Below are positions 22,108 to 40,309 of a stretch of DNA of 64,000 bases, piece after piece (the stretch's first letter is position 1; each line of letters starts with the position of its first letter). Below the pieces are notes generated by a model. The model saw only the letters and a list, made by a program, of their open reading frames with translations, made no database searches and was not told where the DNA came from. The stretch spans positions 544,001 to 608,000 of the forward strand of contig CAWDVR010000001.1 in assembly GCA_963805975.1 (NCBI GenBank). Reading direction: 5' to 3'. The DNA is from an uncultured Acidobacteriota bacterium (lineage in GTDB: Bacteria; Acidobacteriota; Thermoanaerobaculia; Multivoradales; SZUA-115). The translations under genes and the position numbers were made by a program.

Positions 22108-22413
22108 ATGCGAAACTACACCAAGGCCTACTACCTGGGGGAGCTGCGCAAGTTCGCGGGCTTCGCGGCGGTCGCCGGCCCGGCCGCGGCCCGGCTCGAG
22201 GACGAGACCCCGGTCTACGTGCGCGACGACTTCCAGGTCGTCACCTTCGAAGCGGTGTTCGAGGACGAGGCGCCGGAGGCGGAGCTGGTGGTGAAAGAGG
22301 TGACGCCGGAATGGAAGGCGTTCCTCGAGACCCAGCTCGAGCCGCCGTTCGTCATTCCCGACGACCTCAAGTTCATGTACGAAGAGGAACCGGCCCCGGC
22401 CGCGGCCTCCTAG
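22108..22413 (+). CDS. Small acidic hypothetical protein downstream of mbtH
   Basis: GAGGAGG RBS; MRNYTKAYYLGELRKF...VTPEWKAF...IPDDL; coding-like codon usage. Confidence 0.78.
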   Translation: MRNYTKAYYLGELRKFAGFAAVAGPAAARLEDETPVYVRDDFQVVTFEAVFEDEAPEAELVVKEVTPEWKAFLETQLEPPFVIPDDLKFMYEEEPAPAAAS

Positions 22414-23774: not shown

Positions 23775-23838
23775 GGAGGTGGGCAGGATAGCGGCGGCCG
23801 GCGGAAGGCCGCAAGCGAGCGCCGAGGTCGAGGCCGCC

Positions 23839-23938
23839 CCCAGATCCTTCGCTGCGCTCAGGATGACAAGGCCCCCTCTCGCGAGCACAGGGACATCCAC
23901 CCACGTACTGTCATCCTGAGCGCAGCGAAGGATCTGGG
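23839..23938. repeat. Perfect 30-bp inverted REP doublet (REPIN-like)
   Basis: CCCAGATCCTTCGCTGCGCTCAGGATGACA (23839-23868) and its exact reverse complement (23909-23938). Confidence 0.88.
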
Positions 23939-24004
23939 CGGGGGAGGATCGGAGGAGGGGTACACAGCATGGTAGGGTTGGTCTTCTCGATGATGGGCTC
24001 CCAC

Positions 24005-24370
24005 ATGAAAAGACTCCCCGTTCTCCTCCTCTCCTTCTCCCTGCTCTTCTTTCTCTCGTCGCCGGGTGCCGCGGCCGAAGAGCCGGCGAAGCTCGCCAAC
24101 ACCCTGCGCTGGACCACCGCCAGCGAGGTCGACAACTTCGGCTTCGACATCTACCGCGGCGATCAGAAGGACGGCCCCTTCGTCCGCCTGACCCAGTCGC
24201 CGATCCCCGGCGCGGGCACCTCCGACGTGCCCACGCAGTACGAGTACCACGACGAGACCATCGAGCCGGACCGCGAGTACTTCTACTACGTCGAGTCCAT
24301 CGCCATGGACGGCAGGCGGGAGCACTTCACGCCCGTGGTGCGAGTGGCGCCCAAGCGCCGGCCCGAATGA
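24005..24370 (+). CDS. Small secreted FN3-like WxTASE domain protein
   Basis: Signal peptide ending AAA; NTLRWTTASEVDNFGFDIYRG...GAGTS...YEYHD...YFYYVE. Confidence 0.82.
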   Translation: MKRLPVLLLSFSLLFFLSSPGAAAEEPAKLANTLRWTTASEVDNFGFDIYRGDQKDGPFVRLTQSPIPGAGTSDVPTQYEYHDETIEPDREYFYYVESIAMDGRREHFTPVVRVAPKRRPE

Positions 24371-26742
24371 AGGTGCGCTCCAGATTCGCTCGGCGGGCTG
24401 CTCTCCTCGCGCTGGCCGCCGCCGTCGGCGCGAGCCTCGCGGGCGCCGCCGCCCCGAAAGCCGCTCCTCTGCCCGCGGCGATAAAGATCTTCGTGCGCGA
24501 GCCCGGCGTCTACCGGGTGACCTTCGACGAGCTCGCGGCGGCGGGCCTCGCACGCGAACCCTTGGCCAGCCACCGTATCGGGCTCGCGAGCGCCGGCCGG
24601 CCGGTGCCCATCTGGGTCCACGGCGACGGCGACGGCCGCTTCGGCCCCGGCGACGCGATCGAGTTCGTGGGCGAGCACCTGGCCGGCGAGCACTCCTACT
24701 TCAACCCGCAATCGGACGAGAACGTCTACCGGCTGCGCTTCGACGACCCGGCGCCGGCCCGCATGCGCGGCCTGGCCTCCGAGGGGAAGAAGGCTCCGCG
24801 GGCCGGCGGGGCGGCGCGCTTCGAGCGCCGGCTCCACCTCGAGAACGACGACCTGTTGCTGCGCTTCTCCAAGGCTGCCGGCGAGGATGTCGAGCTCTGG
24901 TACTGGGCCAAGCTCGGCTGGGCGGACAAGGAGGCCTTCGCCCTGCCGCTCGAGCTGCCGGGCCGCGAGCCGGCCGGCGCGGTGCGCCTGCGCGTGTCGC
25001 TGCGCGGCTGGTCCTGGCAGCGGCCCGAAGAGCACCGGATGCCCGATCACCGCGTCGAGGTGGCGCTCGACGGCGTGGCGCTCGGCAGCGGCGAATGGGA
25101 CGGTCAGGACGAGCTGGTGCTGGACCTGCCCGCGGTGCCGGCGGCGGCGCTCGCCTCGATCTCCGGAGGGGGAGCGCACAAGCTCACCCTGGGCGTTCCC
25201 CCGCGTACCGCGGAAGGAGCCAAGGACCCGATCGTCGACGTGGTGGTGCTCAACTGGGTCGAGGTCTCCTATCCCTCGGCGCGCGCCGCGGAGGGCGAGG
25301 ACGAGCGGCTCTACCTCGCGGCACCCGGCGCCGCGCAGGGCGTGCTCGAGACCATGGCACCCCTGGTGATCTACGGCGAAAAAGGCAGCCGGGTGGAGGC
25401 GCAGCCGGCCGGCGCCGCCAGGCCCGACGGCAGCAGGCCCTACGCCTTTCCGCTCGCCGCCGGCGAGAGCTGGGTCTACGCGGTGGGAGCCGCCGGACTC
25501 CTCAGCCCGGCGAAGCTGGCGGCGGACCGGCCGTCCGACCTCGCGAGCACGAGCCGGCAGGCGGACTACATCATGATCGCCCACCCCAGCCTGAAGGATG
25601 CGATCGAGCCGCTGGCCGCGCTCCACCGCCGTCGCGGGCTCACCGTCGAGGTGGTGGACGTCGACGACGTCTACGACGAGTTCTCGGACGGCGTGGTCTC
25701 GCCGCGCGCGCTGCGCGATTTCCTCTCCCACGCCTACCACCATTGGGCGCGGCCGGCGCCGCGTTTCGTGCTCCTGGTGGGGGACGCGAGCTGGGACCCG
25801 CGGGCCGCGGAAGCCGGTGAGGACCGCGCCTACGTGGACTGGGCGTTCGCGCCCCGCGACGGCGCCCGCTTCCGGCGGAACCGCAGCACCTCCTACAGTG
25901 ACGAGGCGCTGCGCCGCAACCGCAATCTGATCCCCACCGGCACCTACCTCACTCCCCAGGGCCACGCCGCCAGCGACAACGAGCTGGTGGCGGTGGACGG
26001 CAACGACCGCTACCCGGACCTGGCGATCGGCCGCCTGCCGGTGGTGACGCCGGAAGAGGTGGCGGCCATCGTCAGCAAGACCATCCGCTACCTGACCGAG
26101 CCCGAGGCCGGTGCCTGGCGGCAGCGCATCCTGTGGATCACCAACGAAGACCCGGCGCTCCAGCGGCACAGCGACCGGCTGGCCGCGACCCTCGCCGGCC
26201 AGGGCTACGAGTCGCGCAAGGTCTACCCCGGGGCCACCGGGGCGAGCAACGCGATGCTCCAGCAGACGCTGCGCCAGTCCTTCGACGAGGGCTTCGCGGT
26301 GGTGCACTTCCACGGTCATGGCGGCCGCTACATCTGGCGCACCGGCGTCTCGGACCTGGAAAAGAACAGCGACCTCTTCACCCTCGAGGATCTCGACCGC
26401 CTGGCACCCTCGCACCGGCTCTCGGTGGTGCTGAGCATGACCTGCTACTCGGCGCCGTTCGACCACCCGACGGCGGACTCGATCGGCGAGAAGCTGCTGC
26501 GCTTGCCGGACAAGGGCGCGGTGGCGGTGTTCGCCGCTTCCTGGCGCAACGCCCCGCTCACCGGCTACAGCCAGGCGGTGGTCGAGGAGCTGCTGCGCGA
26601 GAAGACGGTGGGTGAGGCGCTGGTGAAAGCCAAGCGGCGGGCGGTCACCCTGTCGTTGGTCGAGCTCTACAACCTGCTGGGCGACCCGGCCCTCGAGATG
26701 CCGCCGCGGGCCCTGCACGGGCACGAGGCGGCGGCGCCATGA
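24367..26742 (+). CDS. C25 family cysteine peptidase (gingipain/PorU-like)
   Basis: Signal peptide; KIFVREPGVYRVT, ADYIMIAH, VYDEFSDG, LLVGDAS, IGRLP, catalytic HFHGHG and MTCYS, YNLLGDP; ATGA-coupled on both sides. Confidence 0.9.
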   Translation: MKVRSRFARRAALLALAAAVGASLAGAAAPKAAPLPAAIKIFVREPGVYRVTFDELAAAGLAREPLASHRIGLASAGRPVPIWVHGDGDGRFGPGDAIEFVGEHLAGEHSYFNPQSDENVYRLRFDDPAPARMRGLASEGKKAPRAGGAARFERRLHLENDDLLLRFSKAAGEDVELWYWAKLGWADKEAFALPLELPGREPAGAVRLRVSLRGWSWQRPEEHRMPDHRVEVALDGVALGSGEWDGQDELVLDLPAVPAAALASISGGGAHKLTLGVPPRTAEGAKDPIVDVVVLNWVEVSYPSARAAEGEDERLYLAAPGAAQGVLETMAPLVIYGEKGSRVEAQPAGAARPDGSRPYAFPLAAGESWVYAVGAAGLLSPAKLAADRPSDLASTSRQADYIMIAHPSLKDAIEPLAALHRRRGLTVEVVDVDDVYDEFSDGVVSPRALRDFLSHAYHHWARPAPRFVLLVGDASWDPRAAEAGEDRAYVDWAFAPRDGARFRRNRSTSYSDEALRRNRNLIPTGTYLTPQGHAASDNELVAVDGNDRYPDLAIGRLPVVTPEEVAAIVSKTIRYLTEPEAGAWRQRILWITNEDPALQRHSDRLAATLAGQGYESRKVYPGATGASNAMLQQTLRQSFDEGFAVVHFHGHGGRYIWRTGVSDLEKNSDLFTLEDLDRLAPSHRLSVVLSMTCYSAPFDHPTADSIGEKLLRLPDKGAVAVFAASWRNAPLTGYSQAVVEELLREKTVGEALVKAKRRAVTLSLVELYNLLGDPALEMPPRALHGHEAAAP

Positions 26743-27119
26743 GATCCGGCAGCACAGCCCTGCGGGCCGGGCTCGCTCTGGCGGTCCTCACGGTGGTGAT
26801 CCTGGGAACGGGCTGCCAGGGTGGCGACGAGGCGGAGAGCCGCAGGAACCTGCTGCGCTGGACCACGAGCTGGGAGAAGGAGAACGTCGGCTTCGACGTC
26901 TACCGCGGGCCGGCACCCGCAGGCCCCTTCGAGAAGCTCACGCCCGTCCCCATCGCCGGCGGCGGCGTGTCGGAGAAGCCGCAGGACTACCGCTTCGAGG
27001 ACACCACCATCGACCCGGCCCGCGAGTACTTCTACTACGTCGAGGTGGTGAAGGCGAACGGCGAGCGGCTGAAGATCACGCCGGTGATGCGCGCCAAGGC
27101 CAAGGCACCGAAGGGGTGA
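26739..27119 (+). CDS. Lipoprotein paralogue of the FN3-like WxTASE protein
   Basis: Lipobox-like LGTG-C; NLLRWTTSWEKENVGFDVYRG...YRFEDTTIDPAREYFYYVE. Confidence 0.82.
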   Translation: MRSGSTALRAGLALAVLTVVILGTGCQGGDEAESRRNLLRWTTSWEKENVGFDVYRGPAPAGPFEKLTPVPIAGGGVSEKPQDYRFEDTTIDPAREYFYYVEVVKANGERLKITPVMRAKAKAPKG

Positions 27120-28963
27120 GTCGCGGGATCGGCTTCGAGGTCCTTGGGCGAGGTGCTCGACGCCCGAGCTCGCTGCGCGCCTCGCCCAAGGACCTCGAAG
27201 CCGATCCCGCGACGGCACGAGAGAGAAGATCCAAGCGTAACGGCAAGCGAGACGGGTTCGCCTTCGCCGCCATCTTTCTGCTGGCGCTCGCCGTCCGCCT
27301 GCTCTGCCTTCGGCAGCTCGGCGGGTTCCCGCTCTTCGACTTTCCTCTCGCGGACTCGAGGGTCTACCTCGAATGGGCGCGCCAGATCGTGGCGGGGGAT
27401 CTCTGGAGCCGCTCGCAGGGCGTCTTCTACCAGGCGCCGCTCTACCCGTACTTCCTGGCCGCGGTCTCGGGGCTGGCCGGCGAGAGCCTGGGTGCCATCC
27501 GCCTTGCCCAGGCCCTGATCGGCGCACTGGGCTGCGGCCTCCTCACCGTGGCCGGCCGGCTGTTCTTCGATCGGCCGACCGGGCTGCTCGCCGGTGGGCT
27601 CACCGCGCTCTACGCACCGCTGGTCTTCACCGAGAGCCTGATCCAGAAGGAGGCGCTGGCCGCCGCCCTCGCCGCCGCGTTGCTCCTCTCCCTGGCTCTG
27701 GCCGGCCGGCGCGAGCCCGGCTGGCCCTGGCTCGCGGCGGGTGTCGCGCTCGGCGCTCTCTCTCTGCTGCGCGAGAACGCCCTGCTCGTGGCACCGGTCC
27801 TCGCCGGCTGGCTGTTGCTCTCACGGCGCGATCCGCCGGCCGCCGCCCCCCATGGCCTGTGGCCTCGGGTGCTGGCATTCGTGGCAGGCCTGGCGCTGGT
27901 CCTGGTGCCGGTGGCGTTGCGGAACGCGGCCTTCGGCGGTGGCTTGGCGCTGACCACGTCGCAGGCCGGGCCCAACTTCTACATCGGCAACCATGCCGGC
28001 GCCACGGGCTCCTACGTACCGCTCCTCGCCGGCCGGAGCGATCCGGCTTTCGAGCGCCGGGACGCGACCGAGATCGCCGAGCAGGCCGTGGGCCGCGAGC
28101 TGGCGCCGGGCGAGGTCTCTTCCTATTGGTTTCGGAGGGCGCTCACCTTCATGCGTGAGGAACCCGGCGCCTGGCTGGCGCTCCTGGCGCGCAAGGCATG
28201 GATGGTGATGCACCGCTTCGAGCTGGCCGACACCGAGGATCTCTACCTCTTCCGCGAGGCGTCCCCGCTCCTCACGGCCCTTTCCGGGCTCGGCAACCTC
28301 GGGGTCCTGCTGCCGCTGGCGGCCGGCGGCGTGGTCCTCACCTGGGGCCGGCGCCGCGGGCTCGCCCCGCTCTATCTCACCGCCGCGACCCTTCTCCTCT
28401 CCGTTGCCCTGGCCTTCGTCTTCAGCCGCTACCGGTTGCCGGCCGTGCCGGCGCTGGCCGTGCTCGCCGCCGCGGGGTTGCGCGAGGCCTGGCTCCGGGT
28501 TCGCGCCGGCAATCTCCGGTCCCTGGCCCCGGCCGCGCTCGCGGTGGCGCTGGTGGCGGTGCCGGTCAACTGGCCGGCGCCGGCCGCGTGGCGTGGGGGA
28601 ACTGGCATGGCCTTCTCGAACCTCGGCGCGGCGCTCGCCGGCCAGGGCCGTCTCGACGAGGCCATCTCCCAGTACAGGAAGGCGCTCGCCCTGACGCCCG
28701 ACCTCGTCGAGGGACACCTCAACCTGGGCTCGACGCTCCTCGTCCAGGGCCGGGTGGAGGAGGCCTTGCCGCACCTCGAGCGCGCCGCGGCTCTGCAACC
28801 GGCGGACGCCGAGATCGAGCTCCAGCTCGCCTTCGTCCACGAGCGGCGCGGCGACCGCGACGTGGCCCGGGCGCACGCACAGCGTGCGCTCGAGCTGGCC
28901 CGCCGTTCGGGCAGCCCCGGGCTCGCGGCCCGAGCCGAGGCGCTGCTGCGCACGCTGCTCTGA
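27116..28963 (+). CDS. ArnT/PMT-like glycosyltransferase with C-terminal TPRs
   Basis: DSRVYLEWA, FYQAPLYPYFL, LRENAL, NFYIGN, FSRYRLP; TPR tail SNLGAAL...YRKAL. Confidence 0.82.
   Translation: MSRGIGFEVLGRGARRPSSLRASPKDLEADPATARERRSKRNGKRDGFAFAAIFLLALAVRLLCLRQLGGFPLFDFPLADSRVYLEWARQIVAGDLWSRSQGVFYQAPLYPYFLAAVSGLAGESLGAIRLAQALIGALGCGLLTVAGRLFFDRPTGLLAGGLTALYAPLVFTESLIQKEALAAALAAALLLSLALAGRREPGWPWLAAGVALGALSLLRENALLVAPVLAGWLLLSRRDPPAAAPHGLWPRVLAFVAGLALVLVPVALRNAAFGGGLALTTSQAGPNFYIGNHAGATGSYVPLLAGRSDPAFERRDATEIAEQAVGRELAPGEVSSYWFRRALTFMREEPGAWLALLARKAWMVMHRFELADTEDLYLFREASPLLTALSGLGNLGVLLPLAAGGVVLTWGRRRGLAPLYLTAATLLLSVALAFVFSRYRLPAVPALAVLAAAGLREAWLRVRAGNLRSLAPAALAVALVAVPVNWPAPAAWRGGTGMAFSNLGAALAGQGRLDEAISQYRKALALTPDLVEGHLNLGSTLLVQGRVEEALPHLERAAALQPADAEIELQLAFVHERRGDRDVARAHAQRALELARRSGSPGLAARAEALLRTLL
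27120..27213. repeat. Perfect 34-bp inverted repeat with a 26-nt spacer
   Basis: GTCGCGGGATCGGCTTCGAGGTCCTTGGGCGAGG (27120-27153) is the reverse complement of 27180-27213. Confidence 0.9.
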
Positions 28964-28987
28964 GCCTGCAATAGGATCGAGGCCGAG

Positions 28988-30007
28988 ATGAGCGGCACCT
29001 CCTTCAAGATCGCCGCGGTACAGGCGTCGCCGGTCTTCCTCGACCGCGAGCGTACGGTGGACAAGGCGTGCGAGTTGCTGCAGAGGGCAGCCGCGGCCGG
29101 CGCCCGCCTGGTGATCTTCCCGGAGGCCTTCATCCCCACCTACCCGTTCTGGGTCTGGTTCGTGCCGGCGGGCCGCTCCACCGTGCTGCGCGACCTCTAT
29201 GCCGAGCTCCTGGACCAGGCGGTCGCCATCCCCGGCCCGGCCACCGATCGCCTTTGCGCCGCCGCTCGCACGGCCGGGGTCCACGTGGCGATGGGGGTCA
29301 ACGAGATCAACCTCGAAGCGAGCGGCACCACGCTCTACAACACCCTGCTGTGGATCGGCGCCGACGGCTCGATCCTCGGCAAGCACCGCAAGCTCGTGCC
29401 CACGGCCGGCGAGCGACTGGTGCACGCGCCCGGCGACGGCTCGACTCTCGACGTCTACCCGACGCCGATCGGCCGCCTCTCGGGTCTGATCTGCTGGGAG
29501 AACTACATGCCGCTGGCGCGCTACGCGCTCGCCGCCTGGGGCACGGAGATCTATGCCGCGCCCACCTGGGACCGCGGCGAGCCCTGGCTCTCGACCTTGC
29601 GCCACGTGGCCAAGGAATGCCGTTGCTACGTCGCCGGCTGCTGCAGCGCCTTGCACCGGGACGAGGTGCCGGACCGCTATTCCTTCAAGCGCGAGCTCCT
29701 GCCTGCCGACCTCGAGTGGATCAACCCGGGAGACAGCGCCATCGCCGATCCCGATGGCAAGTGGGTGGTGGAGCCGGTCGCCCGTCGCGAGGAGATCCTG
29801 CTCGCCGACGTGGATCTCGACCGTGTGCGCGGCCCACGCTGGCAGCTCGACATCGCCGGCCACTACGCGCGGCCCGACGTCTTCCAGCTCACCGTGGATC
29901 GGACGCCGAGGCCTTTGATCGAAGTCCGCCTTCCGGAGGCTGCGGCACCGCTCGGGCGGGGCAGGAGGCATGGCGGCAAAAAGTTCTCGCCTCCAGCCGG
30001 CCCCTAG
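28988..30007 (+). CDS. Nitrilase (carbon-nitrogen hydrolase)
   Basis: Glu-Lys-Cys triad in FPEAF, HRKLVPT, ICWENY; GHYARPDVF. Confidence 0.92.
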   Translation: MSGTSFKIAAVQASPVFLDRERTVDKACELLQRAAAAGARLVIFPEAFIPTYPFWVWFVPAGRSTVLRDLYAELLDQAVAIPGPATDRLCAAARTAGVHVAMGVNEINLEASGTTLYNTLLWIGADGSILGKHRKLVPTAGERLVHAPGDGSTLDVYPTPIGRLSGLICWENYMPLARYALAAWGTEIYAAPTWDRGEPWLSTLRHVAKECRCYVAGCCSALHRDEVPDRYSFKRELLPADLEWINPGDSAIADPDGKWVVEPVARREEILLADVDLDRVRGPRWQLDIAGHYARPDVFQLTVDRTPRPLIEVRLPEAAAPLGRGRRHGGKKFSPPAGP

Positions 30008-30105
30008 CAAGAAGGTGCAGGCGTCGGCGACGCAGTCTGTCGATCGGACAGCGATTTCCCGGCTTTTCGGCTGTAAACATACCCTCCGTACGGCGCCGCG
30101 AGCCC

Positions 30106-30121
30106 TGGCATGGGGCCTGCA
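30106..30121 (+). promoter_or_regulatory. Candidate sigma54 promoter upstream of ku
   Basis: TGGCATG-GGGC-CTGCA with exact GG-N10-GC spacing, about 200 bp before the ATG. Confidence 0.4.
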
Positions 30122-30317
30122 CTACCGGCCTGCCGTAACGCAATGCCGGCTCGCGATCGTCGCGAACCGGCCTCCAAATAGAGTCACGAGGTACTGGCGG
30201 GTCTTCGGGCCCCGGCGTTTGGCCGGGGGAGACAAATTGGAACTGGGTGCGACGCCGAAAGGCGTAGCCACACGAGGGGGCCCGAAGCCCGCTGTTTTCA
30301 CGAAACTCTCAATCCCC

Positions 30318-31217
30318 ATGGCACATGCGATCTGGAAAGGCAGCCTGAGCTTCGGCCTGGTCAACATTCCCGTCGGGCTCTTTCCTGCCGAGGCACCCGA
30401 CGATCTCGACCTCACGCTCCTCGATCGCCGCGACCTCTCGCGGGTGGGTTACAACAAGATCAACAAAGAGACCGGGGAGCCGATCGAGGCCTCCGAGATC
30501 GTGCGCGGTTACGAGGTCTCGGACGGCAAGTTCGTGCTGCTGACCGAGAGCGATTTCAAGAAGGCCAACCCCAAGGCCACGCAGACGGTCGAGATCTTCG
30601 GCTTCGTGGCCGCCGGTGACATCCCGCCCCTCTACTTCGACAAGCCGTACTACCTGGCGCCGCTCAAGCAGGGTGTCAAGCCTTACGCCCTGTTGCGTGC
30701 GGCGCTCGAGCGCTCCGGTCGCATGGGGCTGGCGCGGCTGGTGATCCGCACGCGGCAGTACCTCGCCGCCGTCTATTCGCACGAGGACTCCCTGGTCGTC
30801 AACCTGCTGCGCTTCCCCCACGAGCTGCGGGACCCCGCCGCTCTCGACGTACCCGACACCGGCAAGAAAGCGGCCCCCTCCGCCAAGGAGCTGGAGCTCG
30901 CCGAGCGGCTGATCGCCGGTATGGAAGAGAAGTGGGAGCCCAAGCAGTACAAGGACGAGTACCGCGACGACCTCCTGGCCCTGATCAAGCGGAAGGCCAA
31001 GAGCCCGCGCGCCGTCGAGGCCGAGCCCGAGCCCGACGACGAACCGATGGCCGAGGTGGTGGACCTGATGGCGCTGCTCAAGAAGAGCGTGGCGGCGAAG
31101 AGCACCGGCAAGGGCTCCACCAAGGCCAAGCCCAAGCGCGCACCGCGCACCGGCAGAGCCTCCACCGAGCGCACGGCCCGCCGCTCGTCGCGATCGCGCA
31201 GCCGGAAGTCGGCCTAG
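30318..31217 (+). CDS. ku: Ku protein (NHEJ)
   Basis: IWKGSLSFGLVNIPV, IVRGYE, YFDKPYYL, YKDEYR, VVDLMALLKKS; basic tail. Confidence 0.96.
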   Translation: MAHAIWKGSLSFGLVNIPVGLFPAEAPDDLDLTLLDRRDLSRVGYNKINKETGEPIEASEIVRGYEVSDGKFVLLTESDFKKANPKATQTVEIFGFVAAGDIPPLYFDKPYYLAPLKQGVKPYALLRAALERSGRMGLARLVIRTRQYLAAVYSHEDSLVVNLLRFPHELRDPAALDVPDTGKKAAPSAKELELAERLIAGMEEKWEPKQYKDEYRDDLLALIKRKAKSPRAVEAEPEPDDEPMAEVVDLMALLKKSVAAKSTGKGSTKAKPKRAPRTGRASTERTARRSSRSRSRKSA

Positions 31218-31239
31218 CCAACCTCTCGGAGAGCGAACC

Positions 31240-33810
31240 ATGCCGCTCGCCGAGTACCACCGCAAGAGAGATTTCCGCCGCACCCCGGAGCCGCGCGGCA
31301 GCGCCGCCAAGGCGCGTGGCAAGCCGGCGGCCGGCAGCTACGTGATCCAGAAGCACGACGCTACCCGCCTGCACTACGACTTCCGGCTCGAGCTCGACGG
31401 CGTGCTCAAGAGCTGGGCCGTGCCCAAGGGGCCCAGCCTCGACCCGGCGGAGAAGCGGCTGGCGGTCGAGGTGGAAGACCATCCCCTCGAGTACGGCGGG
31501 TTCGAAGGGGTGATCCCGCGCGGCGAGTACGGCGGCGGCACGGTGGTGCTGTGGGACCGCGGCCGTTGGCGGCCCCAAGGCGACGCCGGCAAGGATCTCG
31601 CCGCCGGCAAGCTCAAGTTCGAGCTCGAGGGCGAGAAGCTCTCCGGCGGCTGGAACCTGGTGCGGCTCCGTGGCCGGGAGGGGGAGGACGGCCGCACCAA
31701 CTGGCTGCTGATCAAGGAAGACGACGAGCAGGCAAGGCCGCATTCGCAGGGCGATGTCCTCGAAGAACGACCGGAGAGCGTGATCTCCGGCCGGAGCATC
31801 GACGAGGTGGCCGCGCGCCGCGACCGGGTGTGGCGCTCGGGCCGGGCGGAGAAGACCAAACCGGCGCGCGCTCCGGCCAAGGCGAAGAGCGGGCACAAGG
31901 CGCGAGTGGGCGCCGCCCCCGAGCTGCCCTCCGAGCCCCAGCTCGCGACCCTGGTCGACGAGCCGCCGCGGGGCGAGGAATGGCTGCACGAGATCAAGCT
32001 CGACGGCTACCGCGTGCTGGCGCGCTGGGACGGGGAGCGGCCGCAGCTCTTCACCCGCCACGCGCTCGACTGGACCGACCGCTTCCCTGCGGTCGCCGCC
32101 GCGCTCACCAAGCTCCCGGCCGAGTCCGCGCTCCTGGACGGCGAGATCGTGGCCCTGACCGCCGACGGCAAGCCCTCCTTCCAGGCCTTGCAGCGCGCGC
32201 TCCGCGAGGGCAAGGGCGAGCTCACCTACTTCGTCTTCGACCTCCTGCACTTGGACGGGCGGGACCTGGCGGTCCAGCCGCTCCGCGAGCGCAAGGCGCG
32301 GCTCGCCAGCCTGCTCGCCAAGGCCCGCGGCACGACGCTTCGTTACAGCGACCACGTGGAGGGCCGCGGCCTCGACTTCCATCGCTCGGCCTGCAAGCTG
32401 GGGCTCGAAGGGATGGTCAGCAAGCGGGCCGACGCTCCCTACCGGCCGGGCCGCAGCCGCGACTGGCTGAAGATCAAGTGCGGGCGGCGGCAGGAGGCGG
32501 TGATCGGCGGCTTCAGCGAGCCGTCCGGCACCCGCTCGGGCCTCGGCGCCCTGCTGCTGGGGGTGATGGAGGGCGGCAAGCTGCGCTACGCGGGCAAGGT
32601 CGGCACCGGCTTCGACGCCGCCACGCTCCGCGACCTGCGGGCCCGGCTCGGAAAGCTCGAACGCGCCAAGCCGCCGTTCGACCCGGCGCCGCCCCGAGCC
32701 GAGGTGCGCGGCGCGCATTGGGTGCAACCGCGGCTCGTGGCCGAGGTGAGCTTCGCCGAATGGACGGAGGACGGACGGATGCGCCAGGCCTCGTTCCAGG
32801 GTCTGCGGGAGGACAAGAAACCGGCCGAGGTGCGGCGCGAGGAGCCGGCGGAGGCCGCGCCGCCGCCGCCCGCCAAGCCGCGTCCTGCGGCGAGCGGCAA
32901 GAAGGCCAAGGCCGGCCGCGGCCGGGGCGACGGGCCGGCGGGTGTGGCGCTCACCCACCCGGACCGCGTGCTCTATCCGGAGCAGGGCCTCACCAAGCTC
33001 GATCTGGCGCGCTACTACGAGAAGGTGGCGGACTGGGTGCTGCCGCACGTCGCCGGCCGGCCGCTCTCCGTGGTGCGCTGTCCGGACGGGAGCACCGGCC
33101 AGTGCTTCTACCAGAAGCACCCGCACCAGGGAGCCACGAGCCCGCTGCTCTCGGTTCCCATCCGTGAGGACGACGGCGACGAAGCGCCCTATCTCTATAT
33201 CGAGGACCTCGCCGGCCTCGTCACCCTGGTGCAGATCGGTGCCCTGGAGATTCATCCCTGGGGCTCGCGCGTCGCCGCGGTGGAGACGCCGGACCGCTTG
33301 GTGCTGGATCTCGACCCGGATCCGAAGCTGCCGTGGGCCACGCTGGTGGCGGCGGCACGCCTGGTGCGCGACCGCTTGGCCGAGCACGGTCTCGAAAGCT
33401 GGGTCAAGACCACTGGCGGCAAGGGGCTTCACGTTTGCGCGCCGCTCTCTGGAAAGACCTCCTGGGACGACCTTCGCGCCTTCGCGCGCGAGATCGCGGA
33501 GGGACTGGCCCGCGAGGCCCCCGAGCGCTTCCTGAGCAAGGCCTCCAAGGCGGCGCGCGCGGGCAAGATCTTCGTCGACTGGTTGCGCAACGGCCGCGGC
33601 GCCACCGCCGTCGCTCCTTATTCGACGCGGGCTCGCGCCGGTGCCACGGTCGCCACCCCGCTCACCTGGGAGGAGCTGGGGCGCGCGCGGCCCGGCCGCT
33701 TCACGGTCGAGACCGTGCCCGCCCGGCTGGCGCGCCTGGCGCGCGACCCCTGGGAGGGGTTTTCGAAGGCGCGGCAGAAGCTGCCGAAGATTGGATCCGG
33801 CCGAGGGTGA
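31240..33810 (+). CDS. ligD: DNA ligase D (phosphoesterase-ligase-polymerase)
   Basis: QKHDATRLHYDFRLE; EIKLDGYR, EGMVSKR, WLKIK; LTHPDRVLYP, DLDP, KTTGGKGLH, DWLRN. Confidence 0.96.
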   Translation: MPLAEYHRKRDFRRTPEPRGSAAKARGKPAAGSYVIQKHDATRLHYDFRLELDGVLKSWAVPKGPSLDPAEKRLAVEVEDHPLEYGGFEGVIPRGEYGGGTVVLWDRGRWRPQGDAGKDLAAGKLKFELEGEKLSGGWNLVRLRGREGEDGRTNWLLIKEDDEQARPHSQGDVLEERPESVISGRSIDEVAARRDRVWRSGRAEKTKPARAPAKAKSGHKARVGAAPELPSEPQLATLVDEPPRGEEWLHEIKLDGYRVLARWDGERPQLFTRHALDWTDRFPAVAAALTKLPAESALLDGEIVALTADGKPSFQALQRALREGKGELTYFVFDLLHLDGRDLAVQPLRERKARLASLLAKARGTTLRYSDHVEGRGLDFHRSACKLGLEGMVSKRADAPYRPGRSRDWLKIKCGRRQEAVIGGFSEPSGTRSGLGALLLGVMEGGKLRYAGKVGTGFDAATLRDLRARLGKLERAKPPFDPAPPRAEVRGAHWVQPRLVAEVSFAEWTEDGRMRQASFQGLREDKKPAEVRREEPAEAAPPPPAKPRPAASGKKAKAGRGRGDGPAGVALTHPDRVLYPEQGLTKLDLARYYEKVADWVLPHVAGRPLSVVRCPDGSTGQCFYQKHPHQGATSPLLSVPIREDDGDEAPYLYIEDLAGLVTLVQIGALEIHPWGSRVAAVETPDRLVLDLDPDPKLPWATLVAAARLVRDRLAEHGLESWVKTTGGKGLHVCAPLSGKTSWDDLRAFAREIAEGLAREAPERFLSKASKAARAGKIFVDWLRNGRGATAVAPYSTRARAGATVATPLTWEELGRARPGRFTVETVPARLARLARDPWEGFSKARQKLPKIGSGRG

Positions 33811-33823
33811 AAGGGGAGGGAGC

Positions 33824-34691
33824 GTGAAAAAGGGCGAGAAAAAACCACTACGGCCGGCGCAGGCTCAACGCCGCCAGCCGGGCATCGAGTCCAGGATGAA
33901 GCCGCAACCGCAGGCCGAGCGGCCGGAGCACCGGGGGAGCGGCAAGCTCGCGGGCAAGGTGGCGCTGATCACCGGCGGCGACAGCGGCATCGGCCGCGCC
34001 GTCGCCATCGCCTTCGCGCGCGAAGGCGCGAACGTGGCGATCCTCTATCTCGACGAGCACGACGACGCCAAGGAGACCCTGCGCCTGGTCGACGAGGAGG
34101 GGGCGCGCGGCCTCGCTGATCGCCGGCGACATCGGCAACGCGAAGTTCTGCCGCCGCGCCGTCGAGAAGGCGGTCAAGAAGCTCGGCCGGCTCGACGTCC
34201 TGGTCAACAACGCGGCCGAGCAGCACCGGCAGGAGTCGCTCGCGGACATCTCCGTCGCGCAGCTCGAGCGCACCTTCCGCACCAACGTCTTCGCCATGTT
34301 CTACCTGACCCAGGCGGCGCTCGCCCACCTGGGCAAGGGGAGCGCGATCATCAACACGACCTCGGTCACCGCCTACCGCGGCAGCCCGAAGCTGATCGAC
34401 TACGCGGCTACCAAGGGGGCGATCGTCTCCTTCACCCGCTCGCTCGCTTCCGCGCTGGTCGAGCAAGGCATCCGGGTCAACGCGGTCGCGCCGGGACCGA
34501 TCTGGACGCCGCTGATCCCGGCCTCGTTTCCCGCCAAGGAGGTGGCGACCTTCGGCTCGGACTCGCCCATGGGCCGTGCCGGCCAGCCCGCAGAAGTGGC
34601 GCCGTGCTTCGTCTTCCTGGCCTCGGAGGACGCCTCCTACATCACCGGCCAGGTACTGCACCCCAACGGCGGCGAGATCGTCAACGGTTGA
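33824..34691 (+). CDS. General-stress SDR oxidoreductase (YhdF/YdaD-like), +1 frameshift near 34100-34115
   Basis: TGGDSGIGRA; second frame LVNNAAEQ, DYAATKGA, VAPGPIWTPLI, LHPNGG. Confidence 0.88.
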
Positions 34692-34709
34692 GCGGGGAGG
34701 AAGAAAGTC

Positions 34710-36240
34710 ATGCCGCAGTGGATCAAGAAAGCCGTTTGGGACCTGGGCCTGCGCCGGAAGAGATACCCGGCGCTCGAAGAAAACCTGACCGTCGACGTCC
34801 TGGTGGCGGGTGCCGGCATCACCGGTCTCACCACGGCCACGCGGCTCGTCCAGGCCGGCGCGAGCGTGGCCGTGGTCGACGCCGGCCGCGTGGCCTCGGG
34901 CACCTCGGGCGGCACCTCGGCGCACGTCACCGAGGTGCCGGAGATCCCGTATCCGAAGCTCCTCTCCCAGCTCGGGGAGGAGCAAGCCCGCATCTTCACC
35001 GCCGCCTACCGTGCCGGCGTGGAGTGGATCAGAGCACAGGCCGCGGGCGGCATCGACTGTGATTTCGAGACCGTGCCGGCGTTCCGCTACAGCGAGCAGG
35101 AAGAGGACCGTGGGAACCTGGCACGGGAAGCCGAGGCAGCCCGCTCGCTGAACGTGGAGGCCGAGGAGATCGCCGAGCTGCCGCTGCCCTTCGCCATCGC
35201 GGGTGCCATCCGCTTCGCTCGCCAGGCGCAGTTCCACCCCATCCGCTACGTGGATGGCCTGGCGCGGGCCTTCGTCGCGGCCGGCGGCCGGATCTTCGAG
35301 GAGACCCGTCTGACGGACTGGGAGGAGAAAGAGGGCAAGGTCGAGGCCCGGGTCGGCTCCCCCAGGGCGCGGGCGGAGCACCTTGTGCTCGCCACCCACA
35401 CGCCGCCGAACTTCAACCTGTTGCAGACCGAGCTCATCCCGCGGCGCACGTACCTCCTCGCCCTGCGGCTGCGCGAGACGCCTCCCGAAGGCCTGTTCTG
35501 GGACTCGGAGGAGCCGTACCACTATCTCCGGGCCGTGCCCGATCCGGAGGCTGCCGGTGGCAACGGGCGGCTGCTGCTGGTGGGCGGCGAGGACCACACC
35601 ACCGGCCACGACCCGGACACCGCCGAGCGCTATCGGCGCCTGGTAAGGCTGGGCCGGGAAGCGCTTCGCCGTCGAGTCCGTGGTGGCGCGCTGGTCGGCG
35701 CAGTTCTACGAATCGGCCGACGGCCTGCCCTACATCGGCCGGAGCCCCTTCGCCGAGCAGGTGCTCGTCGCCACCGGTTTTTCCGGCGTGGGCCTCTCGG
35801 CCGGCACCATGGCGGGCCTGCTGCTCTCGGACCTGATCCAGGGGCAGAGCAATCCCTGGGCAGAGATCTTCGCCGCCACCCGTCTGCGGCCCCTGGCCGC
35901 CGCGCCGGGCTTCGTGCGCGAGAACGCCGCTTCGGCCGCGGCCTTCGTCAGCGACCGCCTGAAGCCGTCCGAGGCCGAGTCGCTGGACGACGTGCCGCGC
36001 GGCGAGGGTCGCCTCATCCGGCTCGACGGCGAGAGGCTGGCGGTGTACCGCGACCTCGAGGGCCGGCTCAGCGCTCGCTCGCCGGTCTGCACTCACCTCG
36101 GTTGCCTGGTGCGCTGGAACACGGCCGAGGCCACCTGGGACTGTCCCTGCCACGGCGGCCGGTTCAAGCCGGACGGCACCGTGCTCGAAGGCCCGCCGAC
36201 GTCGCCGCTCGAGCCGCGGGAGCTGCCACGCAACCACTAG
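34710..36240 (+). CDS. FAD-dependent oxidoreductase with a C-terminal Rieske domain (YhfW-like), +1 frameshift near 35645
   Basis: GAGITG, AQFHP, GGEDH; second frame WSAQ..DGLPYIG, CTHLGC, WDCPCHG. Confidence 0.88.
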
Positions 36241-36315
36241 GAGCCGAGCTTTCGTGAAAGGCTCGTGGAAACGCAGATGTCAAGCCAAGAGAAAGTATTT
36301 CTATTCGGCATCGAT

Positions 36316-36331
36316 GGGCACGCGGGTTGCA
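36316..36331 (+). promoter_or_regulatory. Sigma54 (-24/-12) promoter of yciF
   Basis: GGGCACG-CGGG-TTGCA, near consensus, in an AT-richer intergenic region 60 bp before the ATG. Confidence 0.68.
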
Positions 36332-36390
36332 ATTGCTGTATAGCGTAGGCAGACGAAGTACTCCAGTGAGACAGTGAAAAAGGAGAGGTT

Positions 36391-37005
36391 ATGGAGCTTT
36401 CTACGCTACGCGATCTGTACGTACACCAGCTCAAGGACGTGTACAGCGCGGAGAAGCAGATCACCAAGGCGTTGCCAAAGATGATTCGCGGCGCTTCCAG
36501 CTCGGAGCTGGTCTCGGCGCTCGAGGAACATCTTTCCGTCACCGAGCAGCAGATCGCGCGCCTGGAGGAAATTTTTACAAACCTCGGCGAGTCGACCCGC
36601 GGCCCCAAGTGCAAAGGCATGGAAGGGCTGCTCGAGGAAGGAGCGGAGACGCTCAAGGCCGAAGGTGACGCGGACGTGCTCGACGCCGCCATCATCGCGT
36701 CCGCACAGCGCGTCGAGCACTACGAGATCGCGGCCTATGGCACCCTGCGCACCTACGCCGAGCTCCTGGGCGAGAAGGACGCTGCGGCGCTGCTCGACAC
36801 CACGGCCGACGAGGAGGGCGAGGCGGACAAGCTGTTGAGCGAGATCGCTCAAACCTGTGTCAACCAGCTCGCGGCCAACGGCAACGGCTCCGGAGCGCCG
36901 AAAGAGCCGCGTCGCAACACGACCAATCGGCCCCGTTCCTCGCGCCGCCAGGCGACTACCAACGAACGCTCTGCGACCAAAGCCACCGCCAGCGGCAAGA
37001 AGTAA
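36391..37005 (+). CDS. yciF: Ferritin-like DUF892 protein
   Basis: LKDVYSAEKQ, CKGMEGL, AQRVEHYEIAAYGT; GGAGAGG RBS. Confidence 0.92.
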   Translation: MELSTLRDLYVHQLKDVYSAEKQITKALPKMIRGASSSELVSALEEHLSVTEQQIARLEEIFTNLGESTRGPKCKGMEGLLEEGAETLKAEGDADVLDAAIIASAQRVEHYEIAAYGTLRTYAELLGEKDAAALLDTTADEEGEADKLLSEIAQTCVNQLAANGNGSGAPKEPRRNTTNRPRSSRRQATTNERSATKATASGKK

Positions 37006-37124
37006 GAGGAAGATCGACTCAGGACTCAGGCAGCAGAGCAGTGCCGCCTCGAGAAAAGTAAGGGATGCAACTTCTTTGGACTGAGCGGCAATGCTTGCCG
37101 CGACAACCAGAAAGGAATTACATC

Positions 37125-37532
37125 ATGGCGAACCAGAAAGAGAACAATCCGGCTCAGGGCCAGCAGGGCCAGGGCCAGCAGGGTCAGCAGGGTGGCTACC
37201 AGAAGCATCAGGGCCAGAATCCAGGCCAGGATCAGGGTGGCCAGGGTCAGCGGCAGGGCCAGCAGCAGGGTGGCGGCTCGCAGAAGCCGTTCGACCAGGG
37301 CCAGCAGGGTGGTGGCATGGGCCAGGGGCAGCAGGGCGGCTTCCAGAAGCCGTCCGACCAGGGCCAGCAGGGCGGGTTCCAAAAGCCGCTCGACCAGGGC
37401 CAGGGTCCGCGCGAGGAAGGGTCCGACCGCGGCCAGAAGCCCGCTCAGGGCAGCGTCAACCCGCGCGCCGAGGACGAGGATCGCGACAACAAGCGCTCCG
37501 AGCGCGGCTCGAGCGACACCGGCTCGCGCTAG
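37125..37532 (+). CDS. Gln/Gly-rich disordered protein (hydrophilin-like)
   Basis: AAAGGAA RBS; repeats QKP(F/S/L)DQGQ x3; almost no hydrophobic core. Confidence 0.72.
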   Translation: MANQKENNPAQGQQGQGQQGQQGGYQKHQGQNPGQDQGGQGQRQGQQQGGGSQKPFDQGQQGGGMGQGQQGGFQKPSDQGQQGGFQKPLDQGQGPREEGSDRGQKPAQGSVNPRAEDEDRDNKRSERGSSDTGSR

Positions 37533-37634
37533 CTCCCACCGTGCGAGCCCGAGGCTCGCAGTTGACCGCTAGCAGCACCGCAGCAAGTGGCCGGCTCCGC
37601 GAGGGGCCGGCCGTCCCTTTCCCTGAACTTCTCG

Positions 37635-39524
37635 CTAGGGCATTTCACCCAACATTCGCCGCGCGAGCGTGCGATGGTTGCTCTCCCCGGCCGCCGAATC
37701 CTCGGTTGCTGCCAGGTAGCGCTCGAGCGCCTGGCGGGACTCCGCCGGCCGCCCCAGCTCCTTGTAGAGGGTGCCCAGGTGGAAGGCGGCGAGCGTGCAA
37801 GAGCCCGCCTCCACGCCCACCAGGGATTGCACGCTCTCGAGCTCGGCCAGAGCATCGGTCTTTCTGCCGTCGAGATAGAGCAGCACGCCCAGGTTCGAAG
37901 TCATCGCGCAGCGTTGGTACGGCACGGCGTCGCGCCCCCGGCGCAGCTCGGAGATCGCCTCCGCCCGGCGCCCGCGCCGCTCGAGCACCACCGCCAGTTG
38001 CTCGTACGGGTGAGGGTTGTCGGGCTGATCCGCCTGCACCAGGCGGAGGTCCCGCTCCGCCCCCTCGAGATCGCCCCGGACCCGGAGGATGCGCGCCCGG
38101 TCGAGGAGGGCCGAGGTCACGGGCCGGATCGCCAAGGCGTCGTTCAAGGTCGTGAGCGCCTCGTCCGGCCTGCCGGCCTCGAGCAGCGCGTGGCCGAGCT
38201 GGGCGCGGTTGAAGGCCGAGGTCGGGTCGCTCACCAGCCCCCGTTCCCAGAGCGCCAGCTCCGAGCCCCAGGCGCGGTTGTAGCGCGCGGTCTGGGCGGC
38301 GAGCGGCAGGAGCAGGAGACCGGTGCCGAAGAGCAGCGCTCGCTCGGCGCGCCGGCGGCGCGCCGGAGCGAGCTCCCCGGCCGCGAGCCAGGCCGCTCCC
38401 AGCGCCGTCATCCAGAAGCCCAGCAGCGGCAGGTAGAGGTAGCGGTCGTGCACGAGCTGCTCGGGGATGAAGGCGTTGACGTTGCAGGCCGGCAGCAGAG
38501 GCACGAGGAACAGCACTGGACCCAGCCAGAGCCGCGGCCGCCGGCGCACCAGCCAGACGGCGAGCACCGCCGCCCCAGCGACCGCCAGCAGCGGCAGCAC
38601 GAGGTTTTCGAAGCCGGCATTGGCCGTCGTGACGGCGCGCAGGGGGTACGACGGTCCCAGCCAGGCTGGCAGTAGCGCCTGCCGCAGATAGAAGGCGAGG
38701 AGCGACGGCGCCGTGAGCAGCAGCCCGACGGGCCCCATCCGCCACGGGGTCTGGACCTCGACCATGCCCAGCACCCAGGCACGTGCGGCAAGGAAGAGGA
38801 CGGCCAGGACGACGAAGGGGAGGCTGGTGAGGATGCCGCGCCGCCAAGCCGCGCGCCACCAAGCTTTTTGCCGGGGCTCGCCGCGGCCGGCCTCACCGCG
38901 GTCGACCCAATGCCCGGCGACCGCTGTGGCCACGAGCACCGGGAAGACGACGGCGATCTCCTTGGCACCGAGAGCCAGGAGGTAGCAGGCGAGCGCGGCC
39001 AGCCACCGCCCGCGGCTCGGGCTTTGCCTCCCGGGAAGGATCAGGAGCAGCGCCAGCAGCTGGAAGAGCGCGGTCAGCAGGTCCGGGGAGCCCGAGATCC
39101 AGGCCACGGACTCGACGTGGACCGGGTGCACGGCGAACACCGCGCCGATCGCCGCGGCGGGCGGCGTAGCGAACCCGAGGCGGCAGAGCAGGAAGAAGGC
39201 AGCGACCACCACGCCGGCGTGCAGAGCCATGTTCGCCAGGTGCCAGCCCACAGGGCTCTCGACCCCGAAGAGTGCATGGTTCGCCGCCAGCCAGGCCACG
39301 AATACCGGCCGCCAGTAGTTACTCCAGGCCTCCTCGCGCGCTCCCTTGAAGGCCCAGACATCCGAGGTCAGGGCCTCGCCCAGCCGGTCCGGGCCACGGA
39401 GAAGGTGATTCTCCAGAATTTGGACTCTGTCGTCATATACGAATTTTCCGTCCAGCGAGTTGGCGTAGGTCGCTAGAGCCACCACCACCAGAATCAACGC
39501 ACAAAGCCCTTGGTTTTTTCGCAC
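37635..39524 (-). CDS. TMTC-like membrane glycosyltransferase with TPR tail
   Basis: FVYDD, YWRP, LFAVHP-type FAVHPVHVESVAWIS, KE, DRYLYLP, LW then TPRs; GTG start inferred. Confidence 0.82.
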   Translation of the reverse strand: MRKNQGLCALILVVVALATYANSLDGKFVYDDRVQILENHLLRGPDRLGEALTSDVWAFKGAREEAWSNYWRPVFVAWLAANHALFGVESPVGWHLANMALHAGVVVAAFFLLCRLGFATPPAAAIGAVFAVHPVHVESVAWISGSPDLLTALFQLLALLLILPGRQSPSRGRWLAALACYLLALGAKEIAVVFPVLVATAVAGHWVDRGEAGRGEPRQKAWWRAAWRRGILTSLPFVVLAVLFLAARAWVLGMVEVQTPWRMGPVGLLLTAPSLLAFYLRQALLPAWLGPSYPLRAVTTANAGFENLVLPLLAVAGAAVLAVWLVRRRPRLWLGPVLFLVPLLPACNVNAFIPEQLVHDRYLYLPLLGFWMTALGAAWLAAGELAPARRRRAERALLFGTGLLLLPLAAQTARYNRAWGSELALWERGLVSDPTSAFNRAQLGHALLEAGRPDEALTTLNDALAIRPVTSALLDRARILRVRGDLEGAERDLRLVQADQPDNPHPYEQLAVVLERRGRRAEAISELRRGRDAVPYQRCAMTSNLGVLLYLDGRKTDALAELESVQSLVGVEAGSCTLAAFHLGTLYKELGRPAESRQALERYLAATEDSAAGESNHRTLARRMLGEMP

Positions 39525-39603
39525 GGGGAGAGTAGAGTACCCGGAAATTGTTGAAGTCGATCCTCGGGACCTGGCGGTCTTCCCGAAAGCTACTGGAGGA
39601 GTC

Positions 39604-40251
39604 ATGAAAAAAGCAGGTTTCGGTCTCTCCGCTCTCGTTGCGGCCCTGGTTGTGCTCCCGGTTCTCGCGGGCACGACGTTGACGTTCACCACCGCGGATC
39701 CGGCGGCGCCGCTGCCCGACAACACCGGCCTTTTCACCGCCTGTCAGAACATCACGGTGGCCGCGATGCCGACCACCATCACCGAGGTGACGGTGCAGAT
39801 CTCTTCGGCGCACTCCTGGGCCGGCGACCTGGTCGCCCGGCTCACGTCCCCGAGCGCCTCGGTTCTGACGCTGGTCAACCGCCCCGGGCGCACCGGCACC
39901 GGCTTCGGCGACAGCAGCAACCTGGCGGCGGCGACGCCGATCACCTACAGCGACACAGCGGCCTCCGGTCTGTCGGCCGAGACCATGGGCAGCCCGGCCG
40001 CTTGCGGTGACACCTCGGTCATCGGCTCCACCCCCGCCTGCCTGGCCGACAACTTCATCCCGGCACCGGCAGTCACTGACATTCCTCCGGGCGTGGGCAC
40101 CAACCTCGCCCAGTTCGACGGCGCGGACCCGAACGGCGTGTGGCAGCTCTGCATCGCCGACGGGGGGCCTGGCGACACCGGCACCCTGAGCTCCTGGAGC
40201 ATCACCGTGACCTCGACGCCGGTGGAGCTGCAGAGCTTCACCATCGAGTAA
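39604..40251 (+). CDS. Secreted proprotein-convertase P-domain protein ending in PVELQSFTIE
   Basis: GGAGGA RBS, signal peptide; HSWAGDL..LTSP and FDGADPNGVWQL..D..GDTGTLSSW. Confidence 0.85.
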   Translation: MKKAGFGLSALVAALVVLPVLAGTTLTFTTADPAAPLPDNTGLFTACQNITVAAMPTTITEVTVQISSAHSWAGDLVARLTSPSASVLTLVNRPGRTGTGFGDSSNLAAATPITYSDTAASGLSAETMGSPAACGDTSVIGSTPACLADNFIPAPAVTDIPPGVGTNLAQFDGADPNGVWQLCIADGGPGDTGTLSSWSITVTSTPVELQSFTIE

Positions 40252-40275: not shown

Positions 40276-40309
40276 GCAAGGCCACCCTTCGGGGTGGCCT
40301 TGCCGTTTC
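40276..40309 (+). terminator. Intrinsic terminator-like hairpin
   Basis: GCAAGGCCACCC-TTCG-GGGTGGCCTTGC: 12-bp stem, UUCG loop, followed by CGTTTC. Confidence 0.75.

Follow-up and report, generated by a model that had tools for sequence, protein, structure and literature searches.

Which machinery reads a short C-terminal tail that carries neither a transmembrane helix nor a basic cluster? The question is raised by a 64,000-nucleotide stretch of DNA from an uncultured Acidobacteriota bacterium (contig CAWDVR010000001.1, positions 544,001 to 608,000; hereafter the window), in which an exported P-domain protein stops directly after PVELQSFTIE, and an operon elsewhere encodes two small exported proteins, A1 and A2, on either side of a C25 cysteine peptidase. 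A sequence-only reading of the window had proposed that one fibronectin type III (FN3) domain is divided between the tail, as its first strand (strand A), and the small proteins, here termed adaptors, which would present the tailed cargo to the peptidase. Computational follow-up bears out part of that interpretation (the split domain, the tail as a signal, the co-occurrence of the parts, and independence from type IX secretion, T9SS), but a different glycosyltransferase from the one named proved to be conserved with the system. The view that the adaptor is an FN3 sandwich missing strand A is well supported by structural models. We somewhat favor a fuller scheme of strand donation, cleavage by the C25 enzyme, and joining of the cargo to a surface glycan.

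The five open reading frames (ORFs) on which the proposal was built are all present, and the operon is translationally coupled through overlapping stop and start codons at 24367 (ATGA), 26739 (ATGA), and 27116 (GTGA). The NxLRWTT motifs of both small proteins and the PVELQSFTIE-stop end of the cargo were likewise confirmed. The A1 motif NTLRWTTASEVDNFGFDIYR sits 7 residues past the likely signal cleavage site and the A2 motif NLLRWTTSWEKENVGFDVYR about 10 residues past the lipobox cysteine, with signal and lipobox assigned by inspection rather than by a predictor.

The adaptors and the tail

Near-length homologues of A1 number 310, of which 120 were listed and 117 could be anchored on the W motif. 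In these 117, positions −7 to −17 before the motif are rich in Pro, Ala, and Glu, 2–10% hydrophobic, and variable in length. The AlphaFold2 model of A1 has six strands that begin at NTLRW (mean predicted local distance difference test score, pLDDT, of 93), whereas the model of an intact domain, taken from a cargo-FN3-C25 fusion, has seven. The extra strand, at residues 16–24, begins at a Leu that motif alignment places opposite the PVEL Leu; the strand has a pLDDT of 74–89, and because the alignment rows were adaptors, it rests on one sequence. Structural searches returned FN3 domains for both models, with best matches of Z 9.5 for the adaptor (root-mean-square deviation 2.6, 79 aligned) and Z 11.3 for the intact domain (2.8, 104 aligned). 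For the 12 PDB FN3 chains common to the two match lists, the adaptor alignment begins 8–14 residues later, as in Ihog (477 vs 464) and ED-B (1280 vs 1266).

Among the 27 most distant longer matches of the adaptor, 21 hold the strand in cis, ahead of T9SS C-terminal domains (CTDs), other short tails, or C25. An intact domain that precedes other short ends (TxWGxIK-like or xFLPxxxK-like) in P0212, P0213, P0215, P0216, P0220, P0228, and P0229 places it at the cargo/signal junction in several systems. In an unrooted tree of 70 hand-picked rows and 90 columns, all 45 strand-less domains fall on one side of a branch from the 25 intact ones (support 95/93). The six versus seven strands, the alignment offset, and the cis strand in the register of the tail together support the split proposed from the sequence. 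Neither the adaptors nor the tail are covered by a Pfam or NCBIfam model; the Atlas returned only unnamed clusters at 0.94–0.96, with FN3-bearing clusters at 0.82–0.83 as leads.

The tail follows the consensus PVxLxxFx[VI][ED]-stop and is nearly fixed in length, ending 3–4 residues after the Phe, near the end of strand A. It was kept in 45 of the 55 proteins on the cargo homologue list (query included), while the remaining ten carry a PEP-CTERM signal (2), another end with a transmembrane helix plus basic residues (6), or were otherwise ended or seemingly cut short (2). The genome encodes a second, unrelated exported protein with the tail (C1:628156-628968, ending LPVELMSFEAD), which, together with its retention among the homologues, argues that the tail is not a chance ending. 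Only two such proteins occur here, compared with up to about 20 in relatives. The fetched loci yielded 56 tail ORFs, some duplicated, which form 39 BLAST families of unrelated cargo; a crude rule assigns a signal-like start to most of them, and Pfam matches were obtained for 11 of the 42 scanned, including Kelch, FG-GAP, LTD, DUF4082, P-domain, and cleaved adhesin. This breadth of cargo and the exchange with PEP-CTERM on the same cargo domain support a portable, sorting-type signal.

A second and commoner C-terminal tail, (I/L)FxDGFE(S/T)GD(T/L)SxW(S/T)xxV(P), was observed on 34 unrelated long ORFs across all six contigs of the genome (e.g., C1:1450873-1453383), and relatives have as many as 83 pattern matches in a genome; a literature search found no paper on the motif. 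It was considered as a C25 substrate and rejected: its pattern matches 6 of 26 adaptor-less genomes (3–35 matches each) and finds none in G040, G001, G043, and three adaptor-bearing Tahibacter/Dokdonella genomes.

Distribution, gene neighborhoods, and the C25 enzyme

Co-occurrence was surveyed in 151 genomes of the class and in 121 from the family that includes Tahibacter, with tails counted by fixed DNA patterns and judged by eye; a missing match does not equal absence. The strand-less domain was detected at E < 1e-30 in 12 of the 151 class genomes, this one included; in G069 it is part of a fusion to a peptidyl-prolyl isomerase (PPIase). Tails were found in all 12 (1 to about 20 each) and in 0 of the other 139. 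A relaxed pattern gave 11 matches in 10 of these 139 genomes, while a reversed control gave 16 over all 151. Six of the 11 end in TGG and two have Phe for Leu, both grounds on which matches were discarded by eye, and three lie in short shadow frames (G148, G026, and G101). A first, looser pattern returned eight in-frame, stop-ended matches in adaptor-less genomes (nine with both lengths: G002, G117 twice, G073 twice, G101, and G097 at 33 nt; G093 and G004 at 36 nt), all without the [VIA][EDQNHK] end. Three genomes flagged as unpublished (G004, G103, and G134) are within the 139.

Stand-alone C25 was found at E < 1e-100 in 11 of the 12 adaptor-bearing class genomes, and in G069 a divergent C25 ORF of 760 codons adjoins the adaptor. 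A further 43 class genomes, G103 among them, gave weaker C25 matches only, mostly in large ORFs. Of the 121 genomes in the Tahibacter family sample, the 30 that have the adaptor (one match being a fragment) are precisely those that have C25. Tails were found in 29 of these 30 and in 0 of the other 91, whose five pattern matches all end in TGG. Across both samples, a stand-alone C25 was found in each adaptor-bearing genome (42 of 42), and relatives have a single core adaptor gene and a single C25 gene per genome for as many as about 20 tail proteins. The predicted co-occurrence is therefore supported in two distant lineages (12/12 vs 0/139; 29/30 vs 0/91), and neither of the genomic patterns named beforehand as fatal to it, a singleton tail or tail-bearing genomes devoid of adaptor and C25, was encountered.

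Gene neighborhoods were compared for the best 80 of 206 adaptor loci, with flanks of up to 10 kb. C25 was present in 57, a membrane glycosyltransferase of the GT-C type in 54, and a tail gene in 9, while 36 contained clusters of GT2/GT4, Wzm/Wzt, or GDP-mannose dehydratase genes. A second adaptor copy right after C25, as in the window, was seen in L004 and L008; in the latter, the TPR and FG-GAP genes that neighbor the cargo in the window directly follow the C25 operon. The coupled fourth gene of the window operon, read from the sequence as an ArnT-TPR partner, is a PMT_2 plus TPR protein not shown to be ArnT, and its occurrence in 1 of 80 loci rules it out as a core part. The conserved fourth component is instead the divergent GT-C encoded at 22410-23774, which had been overlooked; its orthologue was found in 10 of 12 adaptor-bearing class genomes versus 0 of 139 others.

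The adaptor also occurs in fusions. Among 63 longer matches, 22 are adaptor-C25 fusions (5 N-terminal, 17 C-terminal) and 11 are fusions to PPIases. The strand-less domain is C-terminal in PPIC-type PPIases P0200, P0202-P0211, and L109:8989-11163, and the fusion of G069 adjoins a tail gene, a second PPIase, and the divergent C25. P0199, in which a short linker connects a tail with an adaptor, is possibly an artefact of gene calling. Divergent strand-less domains lie mostly at the end of DUF1573 immunoglobulin-repeat proteins, and a tail gene is located just upstream in 19 of 20 fetched regions; these regions cover 21 of 38 secondary matches, and eight were chosen for a known tail, with 11 of the other 12 also having one. 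One cargo-FN3-C25 fusion with an intact dyad is encoded in the genome itself (1613 codons, C2:600780-605621, L002). Such giant ORFs, common in the class, could be self-processing surface proteins.

Two gene arrangements were noted alongside. A conserved operon in the family of Tahibacter (L129-L148) encodes an exported protein of no family ending FDxFDSRRQTFIG-like, a small tail protein, and a DUF1573-repeat protein with a terminal strand-less domain, and adjoins a divergent GT2 gene. In G001, a gene for a PapD-like chaperone and genes for two exported proteins without assignment lie between GT-C and adaptor/C25 (L110:4282-8496).

The C25 enzyme retains a His651/Cys693 dyad that is conserved in 56 of 56 aligned C25 ORFs, and its sole PDB match is PorU (6ZA2, E 1e-15). 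It nevertheless scores below the PorU cut-offs (NF033707, 194.7 vs 420; NF052324, 132.3 vs 450). Its Pfam C25 domain runs to residue 778 in a protein of 791 residues, leaving no room for a CTD, in line with the sequence-only reading. In the genome, a CTD profile built from 10 proteins (9 of 10 recovered in leave-one-out) found no match, and the best PorV candidate reached 28.8 bits against a cut-off of 90, with a working control in a genome that is 96% complete. Searches for PF18962 and SprA were blank, as were their controls. Two secretins are present. The enzyme scores, the lack of a PorV match over the cut-off, and the lack of a CTD match support independence from T9SS.

Predicted mechanism and its rivals

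Under the scheme that we favor, exported cargo would insert its tail as strand A into the adaptor, completing the FN3 sandwich in trans; the completed sandwich would position the cargo for a C25 cut just upstream of the tail, and the enzyme would attach the cut cargo to a glycan of the cell surface that the linked GT-C would help to provide. Binding of the tail to the adaptor is highly probable. The cargo is probably a C25 substrate, and a glycan, given cleavage, would stand an even chance of being the acceptor. Studies of PorU describe cleavage before a C-terminal beta-sandwich, attachment by a peptide bond, and use of free amines (PMC4560394, PMC10202324, PMC4804311). The one-to-many gene ratio and the fusion of adaptors to either end of C25 favor a catalytic reader over a permanent anchor. 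More tentatively, and in our estimate a little short of even, the parts might form a T9SS-free Gram-negative sortase system, in which a ten-residue, single-strand signal rebuilds a domain on an adaptor that passes the cargo to chaperones and to a PorU-like transpeptidase swapping the tail for a surface glycan. Such a system may have originated a single time, when the FN3 domain of cargo-FN3-C25 proteins was split, and passed between Acidobacteriota and Gammaproteobacteria.

Physical binding of cargo by adaptor, also part of the sequence-only reading, was approached by complex prediction. A1 with mature cargo scored 0.46 versus 0.00 for the best control, which was rated weak: of 157 solved pairs, 116 attain the mark, as do 2 of 215 mismatched ones, and scores of 0.60 or less above it comprise only 18 solved pairs plus both mismatches. 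The runs agreed in at least 80% of contacts, with partner pLDDT of at least 74.

Several observations weigh against the favored scheme. The complex score came with no interface and so does not show the tail as the contact, and the halves of a split FN3 domain may pass such a test by their likeness to solved folds. A conserved PorU-type cut site before the tail was sought and is not clear (the T/E/D/N | G/A/S motif described in PMC10202324 occurs in 36 of 76 vs 27.2 expected), and only a very short linker precedes the tail. By a crude rule, 58 of 111 adaptors have a lipobox-like motif; roughly half of the set looks lipidated and could serve to anchor cargo with no cut involved. Tail genes and DUF1573 adaptors form one-to-one pairs in the Tahibacter family. 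The intact domain of T9SS cargo precedes the CTD, so that it presumably remains on the cargo, with the cut made after it. No GT-C was found in adaptor-bearing G088 and G069, nor a tail in adaptor-bearing G176, and the counts overstate independence because the genomes are related.

The linker, the weak cleavage motif, the lipobox motifs, the DUF1573 pairs, and the domain order of T9SS cargo leave non-covalent docking as the main rival. Here, the cargo would keep its tail and hang by strand complementation on a membrane-tethered adaptor, with C25 processing the adaptor or another envelope part. A precedent exists in type V pili, where the donor strand is C-terminal and cleavage by a gingipain occurs as well (PMC13655056). 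A permanent anchor of this kind fits poorly with a single core adaptor gene, coupled or fused to C25, that serves up to about 20 cargoes, and with the finding of stand-alone C25 in all 42 adaptor-bearing genomes; moreover, the ends of the adaptors vary, are of low complexity, and show no conserved site at which C25 might cut them. We regard docking as unlikely, if still worth weighing.

Pilins are known to undergo C-terminal O-glycosylation by TfpO/TfpM, and a related division of labor can be imagined for the tailed cargo. In such a scheme of escort and release, or of direct glycosylation, the adaptor would be a transient chaperone reader, C25 would only hydrolyze the tail, and GT-C would separately glycosylate the cargo or the end newly made on it. 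The fusions of adaptors to PPIases and DUF1573 repeats suit a chaperone role, GT-C is PMT-like, and PorU also releases cargo (PMC10202324). The tight linkage of C25, GT-C, and polysaccharide genes is fitted equally by one coupled attachment step, and we rate this alternative as quite improbable. That the tail is a mere remnant, left by truncation of PVELxxF-FN3 proteins and inherited together with a C25 operon to which it has no relation, draws on how common intact forms are and on the weaker C25 matches, mostly large ORFs, in the 43 further class genomes. This reading is largely refuted and can be given hardly any credence: a tail of nearly fixed length caps 39 unrelated families, no tail was found by pattern in the 230 adaptor-less genomes, many of which have the intact form, and the other abundant tail (FxDGFESGD) does not track the adaptor.

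The window and known sorting systems

Coordinates of the system and its flanking elements are collected below. The genome (G000) comprises 5.36 Mb, and the closest relatives of the adaptors are labeled Thermoanaerobaculia or Acidobacteriota.

Table 1. Features of the system and adjacent elements, in window coordinates
Feature	Position	Strand	Basis or remark
GT-C membrane glycosyltransferase, PMT_2-like, 454 aa	22410..23774	-	PF13231, 27.7 bits; ATG at 23774
35-nt intergenic inverted repeat, repetitive extragenic palindrome (REP)-like, genome-wide, outside the system	23834..23943	.	Lies between GT-C and A1
Adaptor A1: signal peptide and FN3 domain without strand A	24005..24370	+	AlphaFold2 model; FN3 structure matches
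PorU-like C25 cysteine peptidase, stand-alone, with the His651/Cys693 dyad and without a CTD	24367..26742	+	PF01364, 268 bits
Adaptor A2: lipoprotein paralogue, also without strand A	26739..27119	+	47% identical to A1; adaptor profile, 143 bits
PMT_2 plus TPR membrane protein, coupled here, not a conserved part	27116..28963	+	Pfam; 1/80 loci
Cargo: exported P-domain protein with tail at its end	39604..40251	+	PF01483 (P_proprotein)
Tail PVELQSFTIE-stop, predicted donated strand A	40219..40251	+	Register equals strand E16-24 of intact domain
12-bp perfect hairpin 3′ of the cargo gene, possible terminator	40276..40303	+	No T run; not called by terminator scan

Allowing up to 2 mismatches, the genome contains 77 copies of the 26-nt core of the intergenic repeat. 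Between the operon and the cargo gene (28988-37532), a nitrilase gene was recognized by Pfam, accompanied by what we take to be Ku-, LigD-, and ferritin-like genes. Two genes at 33641-36257, presumably for a short-chain dehydrogenase-like protein and an FAD oxidoreductase-like protein, each seem to be split over two frames, possibly through sequencing frameshifts.

Searches of the open-access literature, at the level of listings and abstracts, found no description of this system, which is apparently undescribed so far as a means of sorting proteins. It accounts for hundreds of exported proteins otherwise without annotation, and its predictions are testable in cultured Tahibacter strains; the three Tahibacter genomes G151-G153 gave 15–19 tail-pattern matches. 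If the scheme of strand donation and attachment holds, PorU-like C25 enzymes gain a role outside T9SS, and protein engineering could make use of a naturally occurring tag of ten residues together with its catcher domain and ligase.

Neither the type of signal nor its reader fits any of the families with which they were compared, although the chemistry would be that of PorU. In this comparison, C-terminal sorting signals are of two kinds, tags with a membrane helix that membrane proteases cut and entire folded domains such as the T9SS CTD; a single strand of a split domain would, if true, add a further principle. T9SS itself, with its PorQUVZ attachment complex in Bacteroidota, is alike in its C25 enzyme with a His/Cys dyad, its Sec cargo, and its linked glycan genes, and in both cases a beta-sandwich would sit at the cargo C-terminus. 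There, the signal is the whole folded CTD, whereas here it would be one ten-residue strand that completes an FN3 sandwich in trans; the enzyme has no CTD, falls below the PorU cut-offs, and comes from a genome with no PorV over the cut-off and no CTD match. The lineages also differ, as the present system is found in Acidobacteriota and Gammaproteobacteria.

The tripartite CTERM signals (PEP-CTERM/exosortase, GlyGly-CTERM, MYXO-CTERM, and LPXTG) share a patchy distribution and many unrelated exported cargoes per enzyme locus, and PEP-CTERM is interchangeable with the tail on one cargo domain. They rely on a transmembrane helix, a basic cluster, and a membrane protease; in contrast, the tail has neither helix nor basic cluster and would be served by a soluble C25 enzyme with a separate reader. 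In type V (FimA/Mfa1) and chaperone-usher pili, a donated beta-strand completes the sandwich of another chain; here, adaptor and tail are complementary in anatomy, with a weak complex score and no interface. In type V pili, the donor strand lies at the C-terminus and a gingipain takes part (PMC13655056). A pilus subunit holds both donor strand and groove, whereas here, P0199 excepted, they belong to separate proteins and the cargoes are unrelated; an adaptor without a donor strand would form no polymer by tail-adaptor contact. The intact PVELxxF...WxTxxE FN3 domain of T9SS cargo and of the giant cargo-FN3-C25 proteins is the same domain with the same motifs but carries strand A in cis, the strand-less forms constituting a separate branch.

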